A program made the translations under genes and the position numbers. The notes under the pieces were generated by a model. That model was not told the DNA's origin. It was given only the letters and a program-made list of their open reading frames with translations, and did no database searches. Of a DNA stretch of 64,000 nt, positions 2,220-53,054 are shown piece by piece. The stretch spans positions 3,087-67,086 of the forward strand of contig FR887372.1 in NCBI GenBank assembly GCA_000431795.1. Direction: 5' to 3'. Source of the DNA: Clostridium sp. CAG:302 (GTDB lineage Bacteria > Bacillota_I > Bacilli_A > RF39 > UBA660). Each line of letters starts with the position of its first letter. Positions within the stretch are counted from its first letter, which is position 1.

Positions 2220-2256
2220 TTAAGCATTTTCATATAATGCTATTATTTCTTTCTTA
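2220..2256. repeat. 37-bp direct repeat, copy A (identical to 3450-3486)
   Basis: ttaagcattttcatataatgctattatttctttctta occurs identically at 2220-2256 and 3450-3486, flanking the yhcG-like segment. Confidence 0.9.
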
Positions 2257-2430
2257 CTTAGATTTTTATCAAGAGATATCTACAAACTCACAATGAATAT
2301 TAAAACTAAAGTATAATATATGTAGTTATAGAAATAAACTCATTTTTTAAGTTACTACATTTCAATAAAATTAATGTTCATTTTCTAGACAGAATATCAG
2401 TGGCTTATAATAATCCATCCAATAATACCA

Positions 2431-3436
2431 TTAATGATTATCCAAATTAATATGCATATTTAAATCTTCTTCTGTAGGTAATTTATCAAGAATATTTTTG
2501 GGAATTATGTTTTTAACTTTAAAAGAAGACACACCGATTGGTACATTTGTAGATTTTAAAGACCAATCAACTGATAATCTATCTTTATCTTTACAAAGTA
2601 ATAATCCTATTGTTGGATTATCGTTTTTCGTTCTCAAAGTTTCATCAATAGCGGTTACATAAAAACCAAGTTGCCCAGTATATTCAGGTTTAAACTTATT
2701 TACCTTGAGTTCTACAACAATATAACATCTTAACTCCAAATGATAGAACAATAAATCTATATAATAATCATTTCCATCAACAGATATTTTATATTGATTT
2801 CCAACAAAACTGAAGCCTTTTCCTAATTCTAGTAATACATCCCTTATCTTATCTAGTAAAGCTTCTTCCAATTCCTTTTCTTTGTAATTTTGATGTAATG
2901 TTATAAAGTCAAATATATATGGATCTTTAAAAGTATTATTTACTAAGTCACTATCATTTGGTGGTAATAATGCACTAAAATTATTATTAGTACCTCCTAT
3001 TCTTTTATGAAAATGGCTTTCAATTTGAATAGAAAGTACACTACGACTCCAACCATTTTTGATAGTATTTTCAGCATATATTTTCCTCAAACTTTTATCT
3101 TTGATTTTTTCAATTAAAAGTATATTGTGCCCCCCAAGGCAATTTGGCAACAAGTTGTTGCCAACTCTCATCATCCTTGTATTCTTCATAAAACAATCGC
3201 ATCGCTCTAATATTTCTTTCCGAAAATCCCTTCATTGAAGGAAAAGTTAATTTAAGTTCAGTAGAAACCTGCTTAGTAAAATTATTCCCATAAACTTTAT
3301 TTTCTGATACGATTTTTCCCAACCTGAAATATAGTTTAATTAAATTACTATTAACTTCCTGTATTGTTTTTATTTGAGTACTTATAATTTCTTTCTTCAT
3401 ATTAGCAATAATCATTTTAAAATCTTTTTCTATCAT
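2431..3436 (-). pseudogene. yhcG: YhcG/DUF1016 PDDEXK-family nuclease-like gene, frameshifted at a G6 homopolymer
   Basis: Two overlapping ORFs, 3110-3463 (N-terminal YhcG_N-like, ...QQLVAKLPWG) and 2431-3189 (C-terminal DUF1016, KDPYIFDFI...IDLLFYH...VVELK...PEYTGQLGFYV), lie in different frames. Removing one G from the GGGGGG tract (top-strand cccccc at 3131-3136) restores a continuous ...AKLPWGHNILLIEK... protein. The RBS GAGGGGG precedes the ATG at 3436. Confidence 0.7.
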
Positions 3437-3449
3437 AACATCCCCCTCA

Positions 3450-3486
3450 TTAAGCATTTTCATATAATGCTATTATTTCTTTCTTA
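3450..3486. repeat. 37-bp direct repeat, copy B
   Basis: Identical to 2220-2256. It encodes the C-terminus (KKEIIALYENA*) of the 95-aa ORF and the ATGAAAATG start context. Confidence 0.9.
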
Positions 3487-3737
3487 TTTAAATTCTTTTC
3501 TAAAGACTTAATATCTTTTATAAATTCATCATGATCTTTAGTTATATCTTCAGTCTTAGTTAATATTACTTTTTCTATATCTGATACTCCATATCTAATT
3601 AAATATAGACAATTTAAATTAACATTTCTAGAGTTATTTACAAGTAATTCTAATAAGTAATTATTTTTACTATTAATTAACTTTTCATAACTAGCATAAG
3701 ATATAAACTTAAATAAATAGTTTAGTTTATCTTCCAA
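3450..3737 (-). CDS. Hypothetical 95-aa protein, first ORF after the T-box leader (TTG start)
   Basis: ORF with RBS GGAAGG 7 nt before a TTG start. It sits immediately downstream of the T-box terminator. No recognisable domain. Confidence 0.4.
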   Translation of the reverse strand: MEDKLNYLFKFISYASYEKLINSKNNYLLELLVNNSRNVNLNCLYLIRYGVSDIEKVILTKTEDITKDHDEFIKDIKSLEKNLNKKEIIALYENA

Positions 3738-3759
3738 TTTAATACCTTCCTTCTAAAAA

Positions 3760-3962
3760 AGAAAAAAGATGATACCATAAAAGGACGAATTAATATCCGC
3801 GGTACCACCTTTCTTTATAACATAAGTTATACTCTTAAATCTTTAACCTGATTAACGGTATAAAACTAAAGGGTGAATTCATACTAAATAATTAACTCTT
3901 CTTTCACCCTCTAAGAGCTCGCTAATAATTATTTTTATAGTATTACTACTTCCTCATCACTG
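3760..3962 (-). promoter_or_regulatory. T-box riboswitch leader (presumed Phe-responsive) with terminator
   Basis: Minus strand contains GAAAGGUGGUACCGCGG (top 3796-3812), matching the conserved T-box sequence AGGGUGGNACCGCG. Upstream is a Stem-I-like AGAGGGUGAA...UUCACCCU helix. Downstream is a hairpin plus UCUUUUUUCUUUUUU run. It lies upstream of the operon ending in pheS-pheT. Confidence 0.7.
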
Positions 3963-3967
3963 TCTTA

Positions 3968-4510
3968 TTATATAGTCATTAAATCTTTTTCTTTCTCTTT
4001 TAATTTTTCATCTACAATTTTATTATATTCATTAATTAAATCTTGTACTCTTTCATTACCTCTTTTTTCTTCATCCTCAGGTAATTCTAAGTTTTCTAAT
4101 GCTTTATTAGCATCTTGTCTAATATTTCTAAGAGCTATTTTTGCTTCTTCACCTAACCCTTTAACTTGTTTTACTAATTCTTTTCTTCTATCTTCAGTAA
4201 GTGGTGGTATTACTATAAATACTACTTCTCCATTGTTATTAGGAGTTACTCCTAAATTAGCTTCAAAGATAGCCTTTTCTATTGCTCCAAGACATGATCT
4301 ATCAAATGGTTTAATAGATAATTGCCTAGCCTCAGGTATAGATATATTTGCTAAACTTTTAAGTGGTGTTGGTACTCCATAATATTCTACCATAATACCA
4401 TCTAACATATTAGGATTAGCTCTACCTGCTCTAACATTAGTAAACTTGTTTTCTAAAGATTCAATTGTTAACATCATCTTTTCTTCTGTACTATTTAATA
4501 TTTCTTCCAT
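3968..4510 (-). CDS. frr: Ribosome recycling factor
   Basis: The 180-aa product carries the typical RRF sequence (MLDGIMVEYYGVPTPL...IPPLTEDRRKELVK). Confidence 0.9.
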   Translation of the reverse strand: MEEILNSTEEKMMLTIESLENKFTNVRAGRANPNMLDGIMVEYYGVPTPLKSLANISIPEARQLSIKPFDRSCLGAIEKAIFEANLGVTPNNNGEVVFIVIPPLTEDRRKELVKQVKGLGEEAKIALRNIRQDANKALENLELPEDEEKRGNERVQDLINEYNKIVDEKLKEKEKDLMTI

Positions 4511-4700
4511 ATAATCTCCTTTTTTACATTAAATAATATAACATACTTTTATAATTTATACAATATTTTTTATTATTTTTATATTCTTTTTATTTAGTTC
4601 AAGCCTTACTATGTAAGTCTTTCACTATTATATTAAGCCTAATCTTTAGTCTTAATATAATATATCTACATATCTATTATATATAAGCCATATCTATATA

Positions 4701-4731
4701 GCAAAAAGAAAGATATTAGTTATATCTTTCT
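4701..4731 (-). terminator. Rho-independent terminator downstream of mscL (part of repeat family 2)
   Basis: Minus strand shows AGAAAGATAT-loop-ATATCTTTCT (10-bp stem) followed by UUUUUGC. Confidence 0.6.
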
Positions 4732-4771
4732 TCCAATATATTTTACAATAGATATTTACAAAATAAACTTT

Positions 4772-4830
4772 CACAATAGAGACCTTAGGCTCTATTGTGC
4801 CTCTTAAGACTTATCTTAAGACTTAAGAGG
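4772..4830. repeat. Double-hairpin palindromic repeat element, copy 1 of 5
   Basis: cacaatagag-accttagg-ctctattgtg followed by cctcttaag-N13-cttaagagg. The same architecture occurs at 27050-27102, 56891-56942, 59776-59829 and 61977-62030. Confidence 0.8.
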
Positions 4831-4841
4831 ATATATAATAA

Positions 4842-5271: not shown

Positions 5272-5871
5272 TTAATCTACACAATACAAATTAATTTTAG
5301 GATTATTATTTATAATATTATTAAAACTAGTTCTCTTCTTATTCTTATATTCTGCTCTAAAGTAAGTGTTATCTTTTGTTATATATGTTTTAACTATATA
5401 ATCATTACCATCTTTATCTATAGAAACACTACCAACATAATCACTATTATTATCTAATTTATAAAGATTATAACAAGTATATTGTTTTTTATTTTCCTCT
5501 TCATACATTACTATAGCCTTATTATTAATTTCATCAGAATATTTAGCTATTTCTGAATTAACAACATTATTTAATGTAATAGCTAATATAATACCTACAA
5601 TAATAAAAATCACCACTGAAACTATAGTACCTATTAAGGCATATTTGCCACATTTCTTAGCCCTATTAGGAGTACTCTTTTTCATACTTAAATATAGTAT
5701 TAAACCTACTAATGGGTATAAAAAAGATAAAATATTTAAAATAACTAATGGTTTATCTTCTACTTTATTATTAGTACCATTATTTACCATAACCCCACAT
5801 TTCAAACATACATCATCATTATCATTTAACTTATTACCACAATTTGAACAATACATATTTCTTACCTCCAA
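5272..5871 (-). CDS. Zinc-ribbon domain membrane protein (hypothetical)
   Basis: N-terminal CxxC...CxxC motif ([10 protein letters not shown]...CLKCG), then a transmembrane segment and an extracellular domain. The start is likely the internal Met at about 5856. Confidence 0.5.
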
Positions 5872-5991: not shown

Positions 5992-8103
5992 ATGAATATG
6001 AATAATCCTTATGAAGAAAATTTACAAAAGCCCTTAGAAAAATATGGTAGAGATATTACTAAGGCCGCTAAAGATGGTAAAATTGATCCAGTTATTGGTC
6101 GTGATGAAGAAATAAGAAGTATTACTAGAATACTTTCTCGTAAAACTAAAAATAACCCTGTATTAATTGGTGAACCTGGTGTTGGTAAAACCGCCATTGT
6201 AGAAGGTTTGGCACAAAGAATAATTAAAGGCGATGTTCCTAATAATCTAAAAGATAAGACTATTTGGGAGCTAGATATGGGTGCCCTAGTTGCAGGTGCT
6301 AAATACCGTGGTGAATTTGAAGAAAGACTAAAAGCCGTACTAAAAGAGGTAAAAGATTCTGAAGGTAACATTATTATGTTTATTGATGAAATACATATGA
6401 TTGTAGGTGCTGGTGCTCTTGAAGGCGCTATGGATGCTGGTAATATGTTAAAACCTATGCTAGCTCGTGGTGAAGTACATTGTATTGGTGCTACTACCTT
6501 AAATGAATATCGTAAATATATTGAAAAAGATGCTGCACTAGAAAGAAGATTTCAAAAAGTATTAGTAAAAGAGCCTACTGTTCTAGATACTATTACTATT
6601 CTTCGTGGCCTAAAGTCTAAATTTGAAGTATTCCATGGTGTAACAATTAAAGATAAAGCTTTAATCGCTGCTGCTACCCTATCTGATAGATACATTACTG
6701 ATAGATTCTTACCAGATAAAGCTATTGATTTAGTTGATGAGGCTGCCGCTACTATAAAGGTACAAATGGAATCAGTTCCTACTGCTCTAGATAATCTAGA
6801 AAGAAATATTATGAGACTTGAAATAGAAAAAGAAGCCCTAAAGAAAGAGAAAGATAATATTTCTAAAAATAGAATTACCGAGATAGACAAAGAACTAGAT
6901 AATCTTAAATTAAAAGAAAAAGATCTAAAGACCAAATGGGAAGAAGAAAAGACTGTTAATACTAAGATTAGTAAAAAGAAAGAAGAAATAGATCGTGCTA
7001 ACTTTGAATTAGAGACTGCTGAAAATAACTATGATTTAGAAAGCGCCGCTAGACTAAGACATGGTACTATACCTAAACTAGAAAAAGAACTAGCCTCCCT
7101 TGAAGAGATTAATAAATCAGAAATATTATCAGATACAGTTGATGAAGAAAGCATCGCCGCCATTATATCTAAATGGACTAATATACCAGTATCTAAATTA
7201 GCTGAAGGAGATAAAGAAAAGTTACTACATCTTGAAGACAAAATGAAAGAAAGAGTTAAAGGCCAAGATAATGCTATTCACTTAGTAACTGAAGCCATTA
7301 TTCGTTCAAGAGCGGGTATTAAAGATCCAAATAGACCAATTGGTTCATTTATCTTCTTAGGACCTACTGGTGTTGGTAAAACTGAAGTAGCAAGAACTCT
7401 AGCCTATGAACTATTTGACGATGAAAGACATATGATAAGAATAGATATGTCTGAGTATATGGAAAGTCATTCAGTAGCTAGATTAATTGGTGCCCCTCCA
7501 GGATATGTAGGATATGACGAAGGTGGACAACTTACCGAAGCTGTAAGAAGAAATCCCTACTCTATTGTCTTATTTGATGAAATAGAAAAAGCTCATCACG
7601 ATGTCTTTAATGTACTACTACAAATACTAGATGATGGTAGAATAACCGATGGTCAAGGTAGAACTGTAGATTTTAAGAATACTATCATAATAATGACATC
7701 TAATCTAGGTAGTGAATATATCTTAGATAATAAAGATAATGCTAATGAACTTGTAATGCAAGAATTAAGAAGTACTTTTAAACCTGAGTTCATTAATAGA
7801 ATAGATGAAATAATAATCTTTAATTCTTTAACTAAAGATGTTGTTTATGATATTCTAAATAAAATTATCAAAGATATTGAATATAGATTAAGAGATAAAA
7901 ACATTAAAATAAATGTTACAGATAAAGCCAAAGAGTTTATTGTAAATGCCTCATATGATGAAAAATATGGTGCTAGACCTATAAAGAGATATGTTCAAAG
8001 AAATGTAGAAACTCTAATCGCAGAGGCTATCATTAATGATAAAATATCTTTTGGTAGTACCATTACTATCGATGTAGATAGTGATAAATTAATATTAAAA
8101 TAA
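5992..8103 (+). CDS. clpB: Chaperone ClpB lacking the N-terminal domain
   Basis: Two AAA+ modules ([15 protein letters not shown] and [15 protein letters not shown]) separated by a long coiled-coil M-domain. The N-domain is absent. The track start at 5983 is GTG; the ATG at 5992 has better RBS spacing. Confidence 0.85.
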
Positions 8104-8457: not shown

Positions 8458-8650
8458 TTAAGATGTTAGTCATATTATTATATAATACTTCACTAACTCT
8501 ACTTATCATAGTTTTAACTTCATTATCTGATATATTTTCTAATGTATTATATAGTTCTTTATAACCAGTATAATTCCAATTAAACATATCAGATAAGTAA
8601 TCCAAATCTTTACCTGAAATAATATTAGGTACTACATTATAATTTTGCAT
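8432..8650 (-). CDS. Hypothetical small protein (72 aa), co-oriented partner of the coat F-like gene
   Basis: ORF overlaps the downstream gene by 26 nt. No identifiable domain. Confidence 0.35.
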   Translation of the reverse strand: MQNYNVVPNIISGKDLDYLSDMFNWNYTGYKELYNTLENISDNEVKTMISRVSEVLYNNMTNILNVLGGTYE

Positions 8651-10559: not shown

Positions 10560-10633
10560 TGGTGCCAAATGTAAGAATCGAACTTACCTCTAGGCATTAC
10601 GAGGGCCTTGTTCTACCACTAAACTAATTTGGC
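10560..10633 (-). tRNA. tRNA-Thr (anticodon CGU)
   Basis: The reverse complement folds as a cloverleaf: acceptor GCCAAAU/AUUUGGC, D-arm GUUUAGUGGUAGAAC, anticodon arm AGGCC-CUCGUAA-UGCCU (U33, anticodon CGU, A37), T-arm GUAAG-UUCGAUU-CUUAC, then an encoded ACCA. Confidence 0.75.
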
Positions 10634-24441: not shown

Positions 24442-24464
24442 AATTTTTAACCTCCTCTTATATA

Positions 24465-24600
24465 TGATTATTATCTTGTTACAATTTTGATTTTGTTTTT
24501 TTATAATAATCTAATGAGCATATACACCCAATGTAGTATCCGCCGAAAACTCGATAACTACATACCTCGTTAACTATTTCTAGTCTGGCGCTAATTTATA
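24465..24600 (-). ncRNA. glmS ribozyme (GlcN6P-responsive self-cleaving leader)
   Basis: Minus strand reads AGCGCCAGACUAGAAAUAGUUAACGAGGUAUGUAGUUAUCGAGUUUUCGGCGGAUACUACAUUGGG, matching the glmS ribozyme core (AGCGCCAGAACU...GACGAGGAUGG.GGUUAUCGAAUUUUCGGCGGAUGCC). It is followed by RBS AAGAGGAGG and the glmS ATG. Confidence 0.85.
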
Positions 24601-24691
24601 TTTTCTTCTCCCTTCTATAATATAAACTTTATTACATTATATCAGAATATTAAAAACGTGTAAACATCTGTAGTTACAATTAACTATTGGT

Positions 24692-50308: not shown

Positions 50309-51037
50309 TTAGTCAATTATTTTAAGATAAATATTTACATATTTATCACTATACTTTTTGCTTTTCAATAATTCTAAATTATTATATTTATCTTTTAATT
50401 TATCAAAACTATACTCTAATAATAAGATTCCATTATCTAAAAGTAAATCATACTTAGTAACTAGTTCTATTACTTCTTCCATTACTTCCATTTTATAAGG
50501 AGCATCTACTAGTACAATATTAAACTTAATATTATTATTTTTAAAATATAATAAACTATCTCTATAATCTTTACTAACTATAATACTCTTACTATTAATA
50601 CCAAGATTATTAATATTCTTATTTAAATATCTCAATATATCTTTATTATTATCTACAAAATAACATCTACTAGCACCCATAGATAAAGCTTCTATACCAA
50701 GACTACCAGTACCACAAAATAAATCTAATATGATAGAATCATCAATATAATTTTGAATACTAGTAAACATAGATTCCTTTACTCTATTCATCGTGGGTCT
50801 AGTACCTATTATATTATAAGCCAAATAATTCTTTTCCTTATATTCAGAATATTTATATATTTTTTCTTTTAAAGATATTTTTTCATAATCATCTTTACTA
50901 GTATTATATTTATTAATTAATTCTAATAATTCACTATTATTTATAACTATTTCTTTATAATAATCTAATTTTCTAATTAAATTGCTATTTTCAAAAGAAT
51001 CTATTAACTTCTTTGTTTTATCTATAATATTATTCAT
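50309..51037 (-). CDS. rsmD: YlbF-like::RsmD fusion ORF (duplicate copy 1; 16S rRNA m2G966 methyltransferase domain)
   Basis: N-terminus MNNIIDKTKKLIDSFENS... is a paralog of 52321-52617. The C-terminus (LDLFCGTGSLGIEALSMGA...VLVDAPY) is about 95% identical to 51767-52333. A deletion of about 90 nt relative to copy 2 fuses the frames. Confidence 0.6.
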   Translation of the reverse strand: MNNIIDKTKKLIDSFENSNLIRKLDYYKEIVINNSELLELINKYNTSKDDYEKISLKEKIYKYSEYKEKNYLAYNIIGTRPTMNRVKESMFTSIQNYIDDSIILDLFCGTGSLGIEALSMGASRCYFVDNNKDILRYLNKNINNLGINSKSIIVSKDYRDSLLYFKNNNIKFNIVLVDAPYKMEVMEEVIELVTKYDLLLDNGILLLEYSFDKLKDKYNNLELLKSKKYSDKYVNIYLKIID

Positions 51038-51250
51038 TATCTATATTTAAAATCCTTTTCAAGTTCTCTTTTTATATCTCTTTCTTTAATAAATTCTTTT
51101 TTATCATAATTCTTTTTACCTTTACATACTCCTATTTCTACTTTACATCTTCCTTTTACAAAATAGAATCTAAGTGATATTAGTGTATATCCTTCTATTT
51201 CTAATTTGTTTTTTAGTTTTAATATTTCTTTTTTATGAAGTAAATATATT
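51038..51250 (-). pseudogene. Truncated smpB 3' fragment (duplicate remnant)
   Basis: The reverse complement encodes ...EFIKERDIKRELEKDFKY, matching the C-terminus of smpB at 52617-53054. Nucleotide similarity to 52618-52830 ends near 51250. Confidence 0.65.
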
Positions 51251-51305
51251 TTATCATTTTGATGTTAGAACAGATATCATTTAGACAAAGTTTTTTACAC
51301 TCTCC

Positions 51306-51336
51306 TCTATTTAAAAAAATGAACTATTTTTTAGTT
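51306..51336. terminator. Bidirectional terminator hairpin
   Basis: AAATGAACTA-ttttt-TAGTTCATTT, flanked by A-run and T-run. Confidence 0.6.
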
Positions 51337-51339
51337 CAT

Positions 51340-51684
51340 TTATCTTTTCATTGGTTTTGATTCTTCTACATTTATATTTGATTGTATTTCAAATGATTGT
51401 ATTAAAGCATTAAAATATTGTTCTTTAGAATAACCTTTCGGACATTCGACTTTGCCTGATATGATATCTTCATAAATTTTTCTTTTAAATTTTTCTTTTT
51501 CTTCAGGGATACTCATGTATTGCATTTTCATTTTATATAATTCTTCTAATCTAATTAATATTTTTTCTTCTTCGGAATTTAGCTCTTTATAAGATGGGAT
51601 ATCTTTTGTAATCATTGGAATAACTTGATCAAAAGGATTTTTTTCTAATTTTTTTTGTACTTCATCATATGATTTTTTATTCAT
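51340..51684 (-). CDS. Hypothetical protein (114 aa) located between the duplicated segments
   Basis: ORF with no recognisable motif. Confidence 0.45.
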   Translation of the reverse strand: MNKKSYDEVQKKLEKNPFDQVIPMITKDIPSYKELNSEEEKILIRLEELYKMKMQYMSIPEEKEKFKRKIYEDIISGKVECPKGYSKEQYFNALIQSFEIQSNINVEESKPMKR

Positions 51685-51766
51685 ATTTTCCCTCCTTTAT
51701 TGAATTATACTATATTTTTATTAATTTGACAATTACTATAACTATTCAAAAGTTGCACTTGACTTT

Positions 51767-52333
51767 TTAATTAATAATTATTTTAAGATAAATATTTACA
51801 TATTTATCACCATACTTTTTACTTTTAATTAATTCTAAATTATTATATTTATCTTTTAACTTATCAAAACTATACTCTAATAATAAAATTCCTTTATCTA
51901 AAAGTAAATCATACTTAGTAACTAGTTCTATTACTTCTTCCATTACTTCCATTTTATAAGGAGCATCTACTAGTACAATATTAAACTTAATATTATTATT
52001 TTTAAAATATAATAAACTATCTCTATAATCTTTACTAATTATCGTACTCTTACTATTAATATCAAGATTATTAATATTCTTATTTAAATATCTTAATATA
52101 TCTTTATTATTATCTACAAAATAACATCTACTGGCACCCATAGATAAAGCTTCTATACCAAGACTACCAGTACCACAAAATAAATCTAATATGATAGAAT
52201 CATCAATATAATTTTGAATACTAGCAAACATAGATTCCTTTACTCTACTCATCGTAGGCCTAGTAGTTTCTACATTATATCCAAGCAATTCTCTTCCTTT
52301 TAAATAACCACTTATTACTCTCATATATGACAA
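51767..52333 (-). CDS. rsmD: 16S rRNA (guanine966-N2)-methyltransferase RsmD
   Basis: MRVISGYLKGREL...TRPTMSRVKESMF...LDLFCGTGSLGIEA...VLVDAPY. Confidence 0.85.
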   Translation of the reverse strand: MSYMRVISGYLKGRELLGYNVETTRPTMSRVKESMFASIQNYIDDSIILDLFCGTGSLGIEALSMGASRCYFVDNNKDILRYLNKNINNLDINSKSTIISKDYRDSLLYFKNNNIKFNIVLVDAPYKMEVMEEVIELVTKYDLLLDKGILLLEYSFDKLKDKYNNLELIKSKKYGDKYVNIYLKIIIN

Positions 52334-52617
52334 CCTCTTACATTTGTATATTCTTTAAATCTTTTATTAATACCCATAATATAATAAAATAGTTCATTAT
52401 AATACTTCATATATTCTCTATATTCATCATATTTATATATCTTTTCTTTTAAAGATAACTTCTCATAATTATCAGTACTATTATTATATCTTTTTATTAA
52501 ATCTAATAATTCTTTATTACCAATAACTATTCTTTTATAATAATCTAATTTACTAATTAATTCACTACTCTCAAAAGAATCTATTAACTTCTTAGTTTTA
52601 TCTATAACATTATCCAT
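52321..52617 (-). CDS. YlbF/YmcA-family (DUF964)-like small protein
   Basis: The 98-aa product (IDKTKKLIDSFESSELISKLDYYKRIV...) lies next to rsmD, as B. subtilis ylbF lies near ylbH(rsmD). Confidence 0.5.
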   Translation of the reverse strand: MDNVIDKTKKLIDSFESSELISKLDYYKRIVIGNKELLDLIKRYNNSTDNYEKLSLKEKIYKYDEYREYMKYYNELFYYIMGINKRFKEYTNVRGCHI

Positions 52618-53054
52618 TATCTATATTTAAAGTCCTTTTCTAATTCTCTTTGAATATCTCTTTCTTTAATAGATTCTTTTTTATCATAATTCTTTTTACC
52701 CTTACATACTCCTATTTCTACCTTACATCTACCTTTTACAAAGTAAAATCTAAGAGGTATTAAAGTATAACCCTCTATTTCTAGTTTATTTTTTAACTTT
52801 AATATTTCTCTTTTATGAAGTAATAACTTTCTAGTTCTATCTTCTTCATGATTAAATCTATTACCTTCTTCATAAATAGAAATATGTGTATTAAGTAAAT
52901 ATATTTCATCATTTCTAATAATAGCATAACTATCTTTAATATTAACCTTACCTTGTCTTACAGACTTAATCTCAGTACCAGTAAGTACTATACCCGCTTC
53001 ATAAGTATCCTCAATTACATAGTCATATCTTGCTTTTCTATTTAATATCTCCAT
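52617..53054 (-). CDS. smpB: SsrA-binding protein
   Basis: The 145-aa product reads NRKARYDYVIEDTYEAGIVLTGTEIKS... Confidence 0.9.
   Translation of the reverse strand: MEILNRKARYDYVIEDTYEAGIVLTGTEIKSVRQGKVNIKDSYAIIRNDEIYLLNTHISIYEEGNRFNHEEDRTRKLLLHKREILKLKNKLEIEGYTLIPLRFYFVKGRCKVEIGVCKGKKNYDKKESIKERDIQRELEKDFKYR

Follow-up and report, generated by a model that had tools for sequence, protein, structure and literature searches.

Run-length polymorphism at a short G tract frameshifts a predicted YhcG nuclease gene inserted into the pheST operon of an uncultured gut bacterium

Clostridium sp. CAG:302 is an uncultured human-gut bacterium (Bacilli). In a 64,000-nt stretch of its contig FR887372.1 (hereafter the window) we analyzed yhcG, a gene for a predicted nuclease of the YhcG/DUF1016 family, which is inserted between a 95-codon open reading frame (ORF), orf95, and pheS in a phenylalanine (Phe) T-box-pheST operon and which is split into two frames at a run of six G's (G6). 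We find that sister lineages lack the insert at the same junction, and that natural strains carry runs of five, six, or seven G's (G5, G6, G7), with G6 in the majority and only G5 leaving the gene intact. We favor, at a probability of about 0.6, the reading that a recently introgressed, promoter-less nuclease gene is being inactivated through a mutational hot spot and is in early pseudogenization, while an intact minority persists. In our reading yhcG, acquired recently and either dispensable or costly, is being lost.

Results

A G6 run splits yhcG

The locus lies entirely on the minus strand, in the 5' to 3' order frr, Phe T-box, orf95, a 1,230-bp insert with yhcG, pheS, and pheT. Translation of yhcG starts at the ATG at 3436 and ends in a TGA after 108 amino acids (3436-3110). 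The C-terminal part is encoded in a shifted frame, open from 3189 to 2431, of which 3129-2431 (stop codon 2433-2431) supplies the rest of the DUF1016_N domain and the PD-(D/E)XK domain, as delimited by Pfam, conserved alignment columns, and AF2/Foldseek comparison. The frames part in the codons for Trp-101 and Gly-102, at the G6 run, which occupies 3130-3135 (C6 on the top strand); this run is the only G/C run of six or more in the window. A first-pass annotation made from the sequence had recognized the split PDDEXK gene and its cause, and had placed the run one nucleotide off, at 3131-3136. Removal of one G yields a 334-aa protein that matches DUF1016_N (PF17761, E = 1.6e-36, 125.8 bits against a cut-off of 32.8, model positions 2-137 of 137) and YhcG_C (PF06250, E = 2.3e-61, 206.7 bits against a cut-off of 32.5, positions 2-157 of 157), spanning the junction. 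G6 and G7 alleles encode a protein that ends a few codons past residue 102.

Trp-101 is invariant in 38 family members, in which PWGHN is the consensus at this position, and because the conserved Trp-Gly codons read TGG-GGN, four of the six G's are forced. Close homologues elsewhere (83-88% identity; loci L104, L106, and L120-124) read CCTTGGGGACA, with TGGGGACA giving a run of four (G4) and a GGA Gly codon; the fifth G is a synonymous change (GGA>GGG) peculiar to this insert. As these close homologues all have G4, the run appears to be a lineage-specific accident, not a conserved switch, and the first-pass argument that it is unlikely to be neutral in so AT-rich a genome does not stand.

The yhcG ribosome-binding site (RBS) also contains a G run, GAGGGGGAT (3442-3446), one of five G/C runs of at least 5 nt in the window. 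It differs between strains, reading TGGGGGGGAT in L140 (locus positions ~8636-8650) and, as deduced from protein P0006, TGGAGGGGAT. We discarded a chimeric origin of the yhcG N terminus from the pheS start, since homologues elsewhere also begin with M(I/L)EKDF.

Natural strains carry three run lengths on shared haplotypes

A comparison of tract length across strains, proposed in the first-pass annotation, revealed G5, G6, and G7. Among 19 contigs with an occupied site that were retrieved regardless of yhcG, 18 have G6 and one has G7. Exact G6 protein fragments (including P0135) are present on at least 1,000 public gut-metagenome contigs and a variant on 207 more, and G7 fragments occur on ~195 and ~159 contigs. 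The intact G5 protein, P0124, is identical to our reconstruction, as had been predicted, and occurs on ~117 contigs (128 index blocks), always at the same locus. Intact G5 alleles thus account for ~8-11% and G7 alleles for ~13-17%, and yhcG is off in ~90% of strains. The G5 and G6 samples retrieved do not overlap. A pattern scan of an independent metagenome collection that allowed G4 to G8 returned two G5, 13 G6, and three G7 alleles, and neither G4 nor G8.

We compared 48 alleles of the 1,005-nt ORF, which has few variable sites. Identical haplotypes of the 1.19-kb insert differ in run length: haplotype H1 (348A/732A) occurs with G5, G6, and G7, H2 (477T/492G) with G5 and G6, and a third haplotype (L134) with G7. 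A marker at -3 (T/C) upstream of yhcG is likewise mixed across run lengths, an I313F variant is found both in an intact protein (P0126) and as a G6 fragment (P0122), and G5 and G7 alleles each carry their own linked single-nucleotide polymorphisms (SNPs). Because alleles of different length share SNP haplotypes, run length appears to have changed repeatedly. In the absence of recombination the aligned sequences would call for at least 4-5 independent length changes on a genealogy of ~5 shared substitutions per kb, and such recurrence on so shallow a genealogy would put the rate of change of the run on the order of that of substitutions in the whole gene. Only expansions of the run are seen, which fits a one-way ratchet.

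In an alignment of 30 alleles the shared polymorphisms are all synonymous, and the overall ratio of nonsynonymous to synonymous polymorphism (pN/pS) is ~0.21 (8 synonymous and 7 nonsynonymous, hence small numbers), which suggests purifying selection through much of the history of yhcG. Further damage is found in frameshifted alleles: G6 or G7 alleles hold all three nonsynonymous singletons of this first set of 30, and the G6 allele of L127 is frameshifted a second time near position 826 of the yhcG coding sequence (CDS). An in-frame allele, P0007, lacks 17 aa between two NN(N/T)F repeats.

Sister lineages have an empty orf95-pheS junction

Related loci were collected by exact-protein look-ups and by a scan of one genome per species. 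In L014, whose Orf95 is identical, the orf95 stop codon is directly followed by the pheS RBS, and yhcG is absent. The same empty junction is present in five sister-species representatives (L021-L024 and L026; PheS 89-99% identical) and in L143-145, and more distant relatives keep an orf95 homologue immediately before pheS. The insertion that had been proposed from the window is thus borne out. DNA similarity between yhcG and its homologues begins at the ATG (window 3436-3438), ends ~10 nt before the stop codon, and is confined to the ORF.

The insert is bounded by a perfect 37-bp direct repeat, TAAGAAAGAAATAATAGCATTATATGAAAATGCTTAA on the minus strand, which was correctly located in the first-pass annotation. 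It occurs exactly twice in the window (3486-3450 and 2256-2220, spaced by 1,230 nt), belongs to the few exact repeats there that reach 30 nt, and was not matched at up to three mismatches in any of 100 shuffles. The left copy (3450-3486) is the 3' end of functional orf95 (3450-3737, TTG start), comprising its last 34 nt and the stop codon. The perfect repeat stops exactly at this codon and leaves the pheS RBS and ATG outside; of the two elements that were said to be duplicated, the orf95 3' end lies within the 37 bp and the pheS start context does not, although the original duplication would have included it (see below). Imperfect similarity extends ~20 nt upstream and ~25 nt downstream of the 37-mer (82 nt at 80% identity); in the window allele the pheS RBS/ATG context is imperfectly duplicated. 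The right repeat (2220-2276) consists of a 20-nt imperfect arm (2257-2276) and the perfect copy (2220-2256), and its 57 nt are a nonfunctional remnant of a sister-lineage-type orf95 3' end (...AAAAATCTAAG).

The empty L143-145 loci, which encode the Orf95 variant P0152, have the native junction ...AAAAATCTAAG, 37-mer, TGAGGAGGATATT, ATGAATATAGAA, and all occupied alleles have a right arm of this L143 type (...AAAAATCTAAG). Downstream of the right core, L113, L115, and L125 retain TGAGGAGGATATT. Over its first 100 nt, pheS of L113 differs at 1 position from L143 and at 19-21 positions from all CAG-302-type alleles, and in L125 the insert stands on an L023-type left flank. The 13-nt ribosome-binding region of yhcG, TGAGGGGGATGTT (3437-3449), corresponds to the sister-lineage pheS RBS 13-mer TGAGGAGGATATT with two A>G changes when compared with the junctions of L143/L145, L113, L115, and L125. 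The L143-type arm, the L113, L115, and L125 junctions, and the RBS copy together argue for capture in, or via, a P0152-like genome. Judged from these junctions, the original duplication would have spanned at least 11 + 37 + 16 = 64 nt, with the pheS start context included. Each joint has a short sequence common to both sides, a possible microhomology of 4-6 nt: ATGA at the yhcG start and AGATAT at the opposite end.

We calculated nucleotide diversity over 24 distinct occupied alleles, comparing the insert (window 2257-3449) with its flanks (1-2219 and 3487-4510). The insert has values of 0.0017 for the CDS and 0.0005 for the spacer, ~10-fold lower than the 0.009-0.021 of frr, orf95, pheS, and pheT, and the transitions at the repeats are sharp. 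Together with the sister-lineage flank DNA, this low diversity points to spread of the insert by recombination.

In L113, L115, and L125, TGA and GGAGGATATT follow the right core and make a 42-nt perfect repeat; these loci have a sister-lineage-type pheS 5' end (ATGGAT... or ATGAATATAGAAGAAATAAAAAAAGAT), with the L113/L115 junction at about locus position 6225. As a marker of excision we considered three synonymous sites that precede the left core; they proved uninformative, being polymorphic in occupied and empty alleles alike. Logan contigs of 1,252 bp with G5 were considered as excised circles; they are de Bruijn-graph unitigs, as each of their ends lies exactly k-1 = 30 nt within one of the 37-bp repeats.

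The remainder of the insert is a 154-nt noncoding tail (2277-2430) with no similarity to orf95 or to the flanks of the homologues and no significant RNA fold (z = -0.07). A decayed second orf95 was rejected as its source, the gapped alignment scoring no better than shuffles. With yhcG as its sole gene, no inverted repeat found to join its ends, and a duplication of 37 to at least 64 nt, which is not short, the insert does not resemble an insertion sequence or transposon, nor, despite its repeats, an integrative element, as there is no recombinase in or adjoining it. A search for a phage or plasmid origin returned only distant family members, and no viral contig with a close relative or with the right-arm/core junction. 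The homologues at secG|rnr and rpmA|apbE have no direct repeats of 16 nt or more at their ends; the genes that border these two sites do not occur in the window.

yhcG is most likely read from the Phe T-box transcript

The T-box leader that controls the operon (3778-3969) matches the full Rfam model RF00230 (1-219) with 95.2 bits (gathering threshold 93), and GAA-UUC-A in the specifier position reads Phe; the T-box-pheST operon had been correctly named in the first-pass annotation. Only 13 nt separate the orf95 stop codon from the yhcG ATG, the interval from the T-box to pheS has no predicted intrinsic terminator, and promoter-like sites in it are at chance level (14 versus 15.4 expected). On these grounds yhcG is most likely read from the Phe T-box-controlled transcript, as had been proposed, and pheST is most likely transcribed through yhcG. 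Homologues at secG|rnr, at rpmA|apbE, and beside an integrase have a near-consensus extended -10 element (TGnTATAAT) ~35-45 nt before the RBS (read at L104 5950-6000, L106 5950-6000, and L120 1560-1625); the window copy of yhcG has no extended -10 promoter of its own. Cells evidently tolerate this arrangement, which is the common one in human-gut samples.

YhcG is a predicted PD-(D/E)XK nuclease

The family has been predicted to consist of PD-(D/E)XK nucleases with the motif E-D-E(I/L/V)K (PMC1189080). In the restored protein the motif is formed by Glu-186, Asp-227, and Glu-242-Leu-Lys-244; in the 38 sequences Asp-227 is invariant and Glu-186, Glu-242, and Lys-244 are at least 90% conserved. 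An AF2 model (pLDDT 83) has an all-helical N-domain without structural match and a C-domain whose nearest relative is NucS/EndoMS (Foldseek E = 3e-5), in line with what has been predicted of YhcG proteins. Domain matches, motif, and model thus agree with the family of Escherichia coli YhcG (PF17761 + PF06250; COG4804), of which the product is a predicted full-length, two-domain member; the window copy differs from that family in being promoter-less, in its place inside an aminoacyl-tRNA synthetase operon, and in being frameshifted in most strains. The family is large (18,235 representative clusters at E <= 1e-3); our sequence search found no solved structure for it, and the literature searched held no biochemical report of nuclease activity.

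The protein also matches the PADLOC defense candidate PDC-S02 very strongly (hidden Markov model PDLC04795, E = 2.9e-130, residues 3-330). Relatives of YhcG are found on conjugative elements and beside phase-variable restriction-modification (RM) systems (PMC4316617, PMC9881135). The window gene lies outside a defense island, and the candidate status of PDC-S02 is unvalidated; in the sole phage test that we found, one distant representative gave no protection against T4, T5, and T7 in E. coli B (bioRxiv 10.1101/2024.09.26.614923). The closest homologue outside the locus (P0008, 88%) adjoins genes for a tyrosine integrase and a helix-turn-helix (HTH) protein, and other close homologues are solitary genes at the housekeeping sites secG|rnr and rpmA|apbE.

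Surroundings of the insert

pheS (1175-2219) has its native RBS GGAGGATATT at 2210-2219 and its ATG at 2209, and runs to 1175. It matches the Pfam families tRNA-synt_2d (9e-100) and Phe_tRNA-synt_N, and gene calls in 30 loci give it 344 aa. In all related loci pheS is directly followed by a called PheT of 788 aa; in the window only the 5' part of pheT is present (1-1175), where the gene leaves the stretch. Upstream of the T-box lies frr (4510-3968). orf95 stands directly upstream of pheS in related genomes, always downstream of the Phe T-box, at 36-98% identity and is restricted to the clade (L021-L032 and L143-145). It has no match in Pfam, NCBIfam, or PADLOC, and its AF2 model is unusable (pLDDT 46). 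Two related genomes (L028 and L030) lack orf95, and there the T-box terminator directly precedes pheS.

Many strains (L002, L003, L007-L009, and L112-L119) have an extra ORF of 713-745 aa directly upstream of frr, where the window has the frr-mscL intergenic region (4511-4841). In L115 it has DUF285 and faint leucine-rich repeat matches, and in L002 and L009 the upstream neighbor is ligA, not mscL. Downstream of pheT, too, strains vary (thrS-like, HD/RelA-SpoT, CotZ). The operon lies between two hot spots of insertion and deletion. In L013 (3901-4484) the gene for a 194/199-aa zinc-ribbon membrane protein upstream of mscL (window 5272-5871, minus strand) is split by a 1-nt deletion (GG>G) that involves no long homopolymer. 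Elsewhere in the window, adjacent minus-strand ORFs of 242 and 188 aa (50309-52700) have exact repeats in common, up to 145 nt long and 1,461 nt apart, and may be recent tandem paralogues; a glmS ribozyme (56.6 bits) lies at 24457-24603 and a tRNA gene at 10563-10633, both on the minus strand.

Discussion

Our data are consistent with the following history. A promoter-less, single yhcG gene would have been captured between orf95 and pheS in a sister lineage with a P0152-like genome. The capture would have duplicated the junction, leaving orf95 with its 3' end and pheS with its own RBS, and joining the yhcG ATG to a copy of the pheS RBS. Homologous recombination may then have moved the insert into at least two related gut lineages, including the CAG:302-type strain of the window, where only the 37 nt identical between donor and recipient would stay as a perfect repeat. 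Such an introgression would account for the low diversity of the insert with its sharp edges and for the length of the perfect repeat. Within this insert a synonymous GGA>GGG change would have made the G5 run at Trp-101-Gly-102, which slipped-strand replication errors may have lengthened several times to G6 and G7; the window carries the majority G6 (off) state. Frameshift polymorphism at homopolymers and the capture and spread of accessory genes are known kinds of event, and neither gene loss nor switching driven by slippage is unprecedented. The locus shares with illegitimate gene capture followed by spread through recombination an ORF-precise piece of foreign DNA, possible microhomology at the joints, a target duplication, tracts of donor flank, and low diversity. 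It differs in that a duplication of at least 64 nt re-uses the RBS of the downstream gene, inside an essential, riboswitch-controlled operon. We know of no described parallel for a capture of yhcG of this kind.

Several observations weigh against ongoing inactivation of a recently introgressed gene. The 20-nt right arm has three mismatches, and the copied RBS has two A>G changes. These are too many for an insert as young as its diversity implies, and our history does not account for them. Short conversion patches could mimic recurrent length changes, recombination being clearly active in the region, and the run states might have been exchanged among haplotypes by recombination in place of repeated slippage. 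On >1,000 contigs the off alleles are intact apart from the run, and pN/pS across alleles is ~0.21, as would be expected too of a maintained, reversible switch. In a neighbor-joining (NJ) tree of the flanks, which is blurred by recombination, parsimony is slightly shorter when some G6>G5 reversions are allowed.

The first-pass annotation had offered a phase-variable switch or a recent inactivation, and these are exactly the two readings that the data still allow. Simple-sequence contingency loci are poly-G/C tracts in RM, surface, and defense genes of Campylobacter, Neisseria, Haemophilus, and Helicobacter, and classical poly-G tracts of this kind are usually at least 7-8 nt long. If yhcG were a true contingency locus, G5 would be the on state and G6 and G7 the off states of a reversible switch that controls a costly defense or self-toxic nuclease under phage pressure. 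As in such loci, a homopolymer within an ORF sets the reading frame, all three lengths occur in nature among near-identical alleles and on shared haplotypes, and the gene encodes a predicted nuclease; most off alleles are undamaged elsewhere in the ORF, pN/pS is ~0.21, the NJ tree is compatible with reversions, and DUF1016 genes are enriched beside phase-variable RM/BREX loci (PMC9881135). However, the run is short (5-7 nt) and not conserved, being absent from all close homologues (G4), on alleles make up only ~10%, G7 needs more than one step back to the on state, and the exclusive occurrence of expansions, with no G4 or G8, suggests biased expansion instead of two-way switching. The family has no described defense activity, and one PDC-S02 representative did not protect against T4, T5, and T7. 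Adaptive phase variation is therefore a live alternative but less likely than slippage-driven inactivation, and the run is probably not a designed switch. A broader version, in which the insert is not a decaying passenger but a selected functional module, with the nuclease wired to the T-box transcript via the copied pheS RBS, gated by the G run, and sheltered by the operon, seems to us doubtful. If it were true, yhcG would be a candidate defense or self-toxic nuclease made only when tRNA-Phe is uncharged, as in starvation or phage takeover; its position in an essential operon would shelter it from deletion, and selection would drive its rapid spread across lineages.

Other explanations concern the origin of the insert or the reality of the frameshift. 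The 37-bp repeats might be attachment (att)-like sites and the insert the stripped remnant of an element that entered at the orf95 3' end by integrase-mediated or Campbell-type recombination. The identical core, sharp edges, and diverged arms do resemble attL/attR, and the closest outside homologue (P0008) lies beside a tyrosine integrase and an HTH gene. We consider such an entry improbable, as the insert has no integrase or other credible gene, the difference between donor and recipient lineages explains the diverged arms, and neither the junction nor a close relative is found on a viral contig; the exact joining of the yhcG ATG to the pheS RBS copy, with similarity to homologues starting at the ATG, speaks for illegitimate, microhomology-mediated capture. 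A free-standing, homing-type selfish nuclease that cut empty orf95|pheS junctions, was copied by repair, swept, and now degenerates is less probable still. Homing endonucleases pass through invasion, fixation, degeneration, and loss (the Goddard and Burt model), and yhcG has in common with them a solitary nuclease gene at a conserved site, presence/absence polymorphism across lineages, and mostly degenerate alleles where it is common; an insert diversity ~10-fold below that of the flanks, donor-type tracts that look like co-conversion, and close homologues standing alone at other housekeeping sites would fit as well. But the insertion leaves the target undestroyed, the empty-site sequence being intact at the right junction from 37 nt upstream and through everything downstream, so that insertion would not block cutting. 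Moreover, homing does not produce long duplications, no specificity or activity has been described for the family, and the low diversity is equally explained by the inability of insert-less lineages to donate variation to the insert.

The G6 allele could in principle yield full-length nuclease through +1 ribosomal frameshifting, a slip of tRNA-Gly on GGG-G from G's 3-5 to G's 4-6 restoring ...PWGHN... exactly. Reasoning from the codons and their context, we find this highly improbable: the run lacks any stimulatory element (a rare or stop codon, Shine-Dalgarno-like spacing upstream, or a structure downstream), G7 alleles would require a +2 shift, and nothing is conserved in homologues. There is a negligible chance that G6 stems from faulty sequencing or assembly of this single genome and that G5 is the true length. 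Some platforms are prone to errors in homopolymers, but many studies have yielded the identical fragments, on at least 1,000 contigs in all; of 19 occupied contigs assembled independently, 18 have G6; and G5 and G7 come with linked SNPs of their own.

Hot-spot-driven inactivation of a recently introgressed gene thus remains our preferred reading. The locus offers a rare, well resolved natural history of one accessory gene in an uncultured gut bacterium, from a capture that re-used a neighbor's translation signals, through embedding in a riboswitch operon and spread by recombination, to repeated inactivation at a G run. As yhcG is called as two ORFs in most assemblies, its annotation calls for caution. 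Intact and broken yhcG alleles lie one base apart and provide natural controls for the function of the YhcG/PDC-S02 family.

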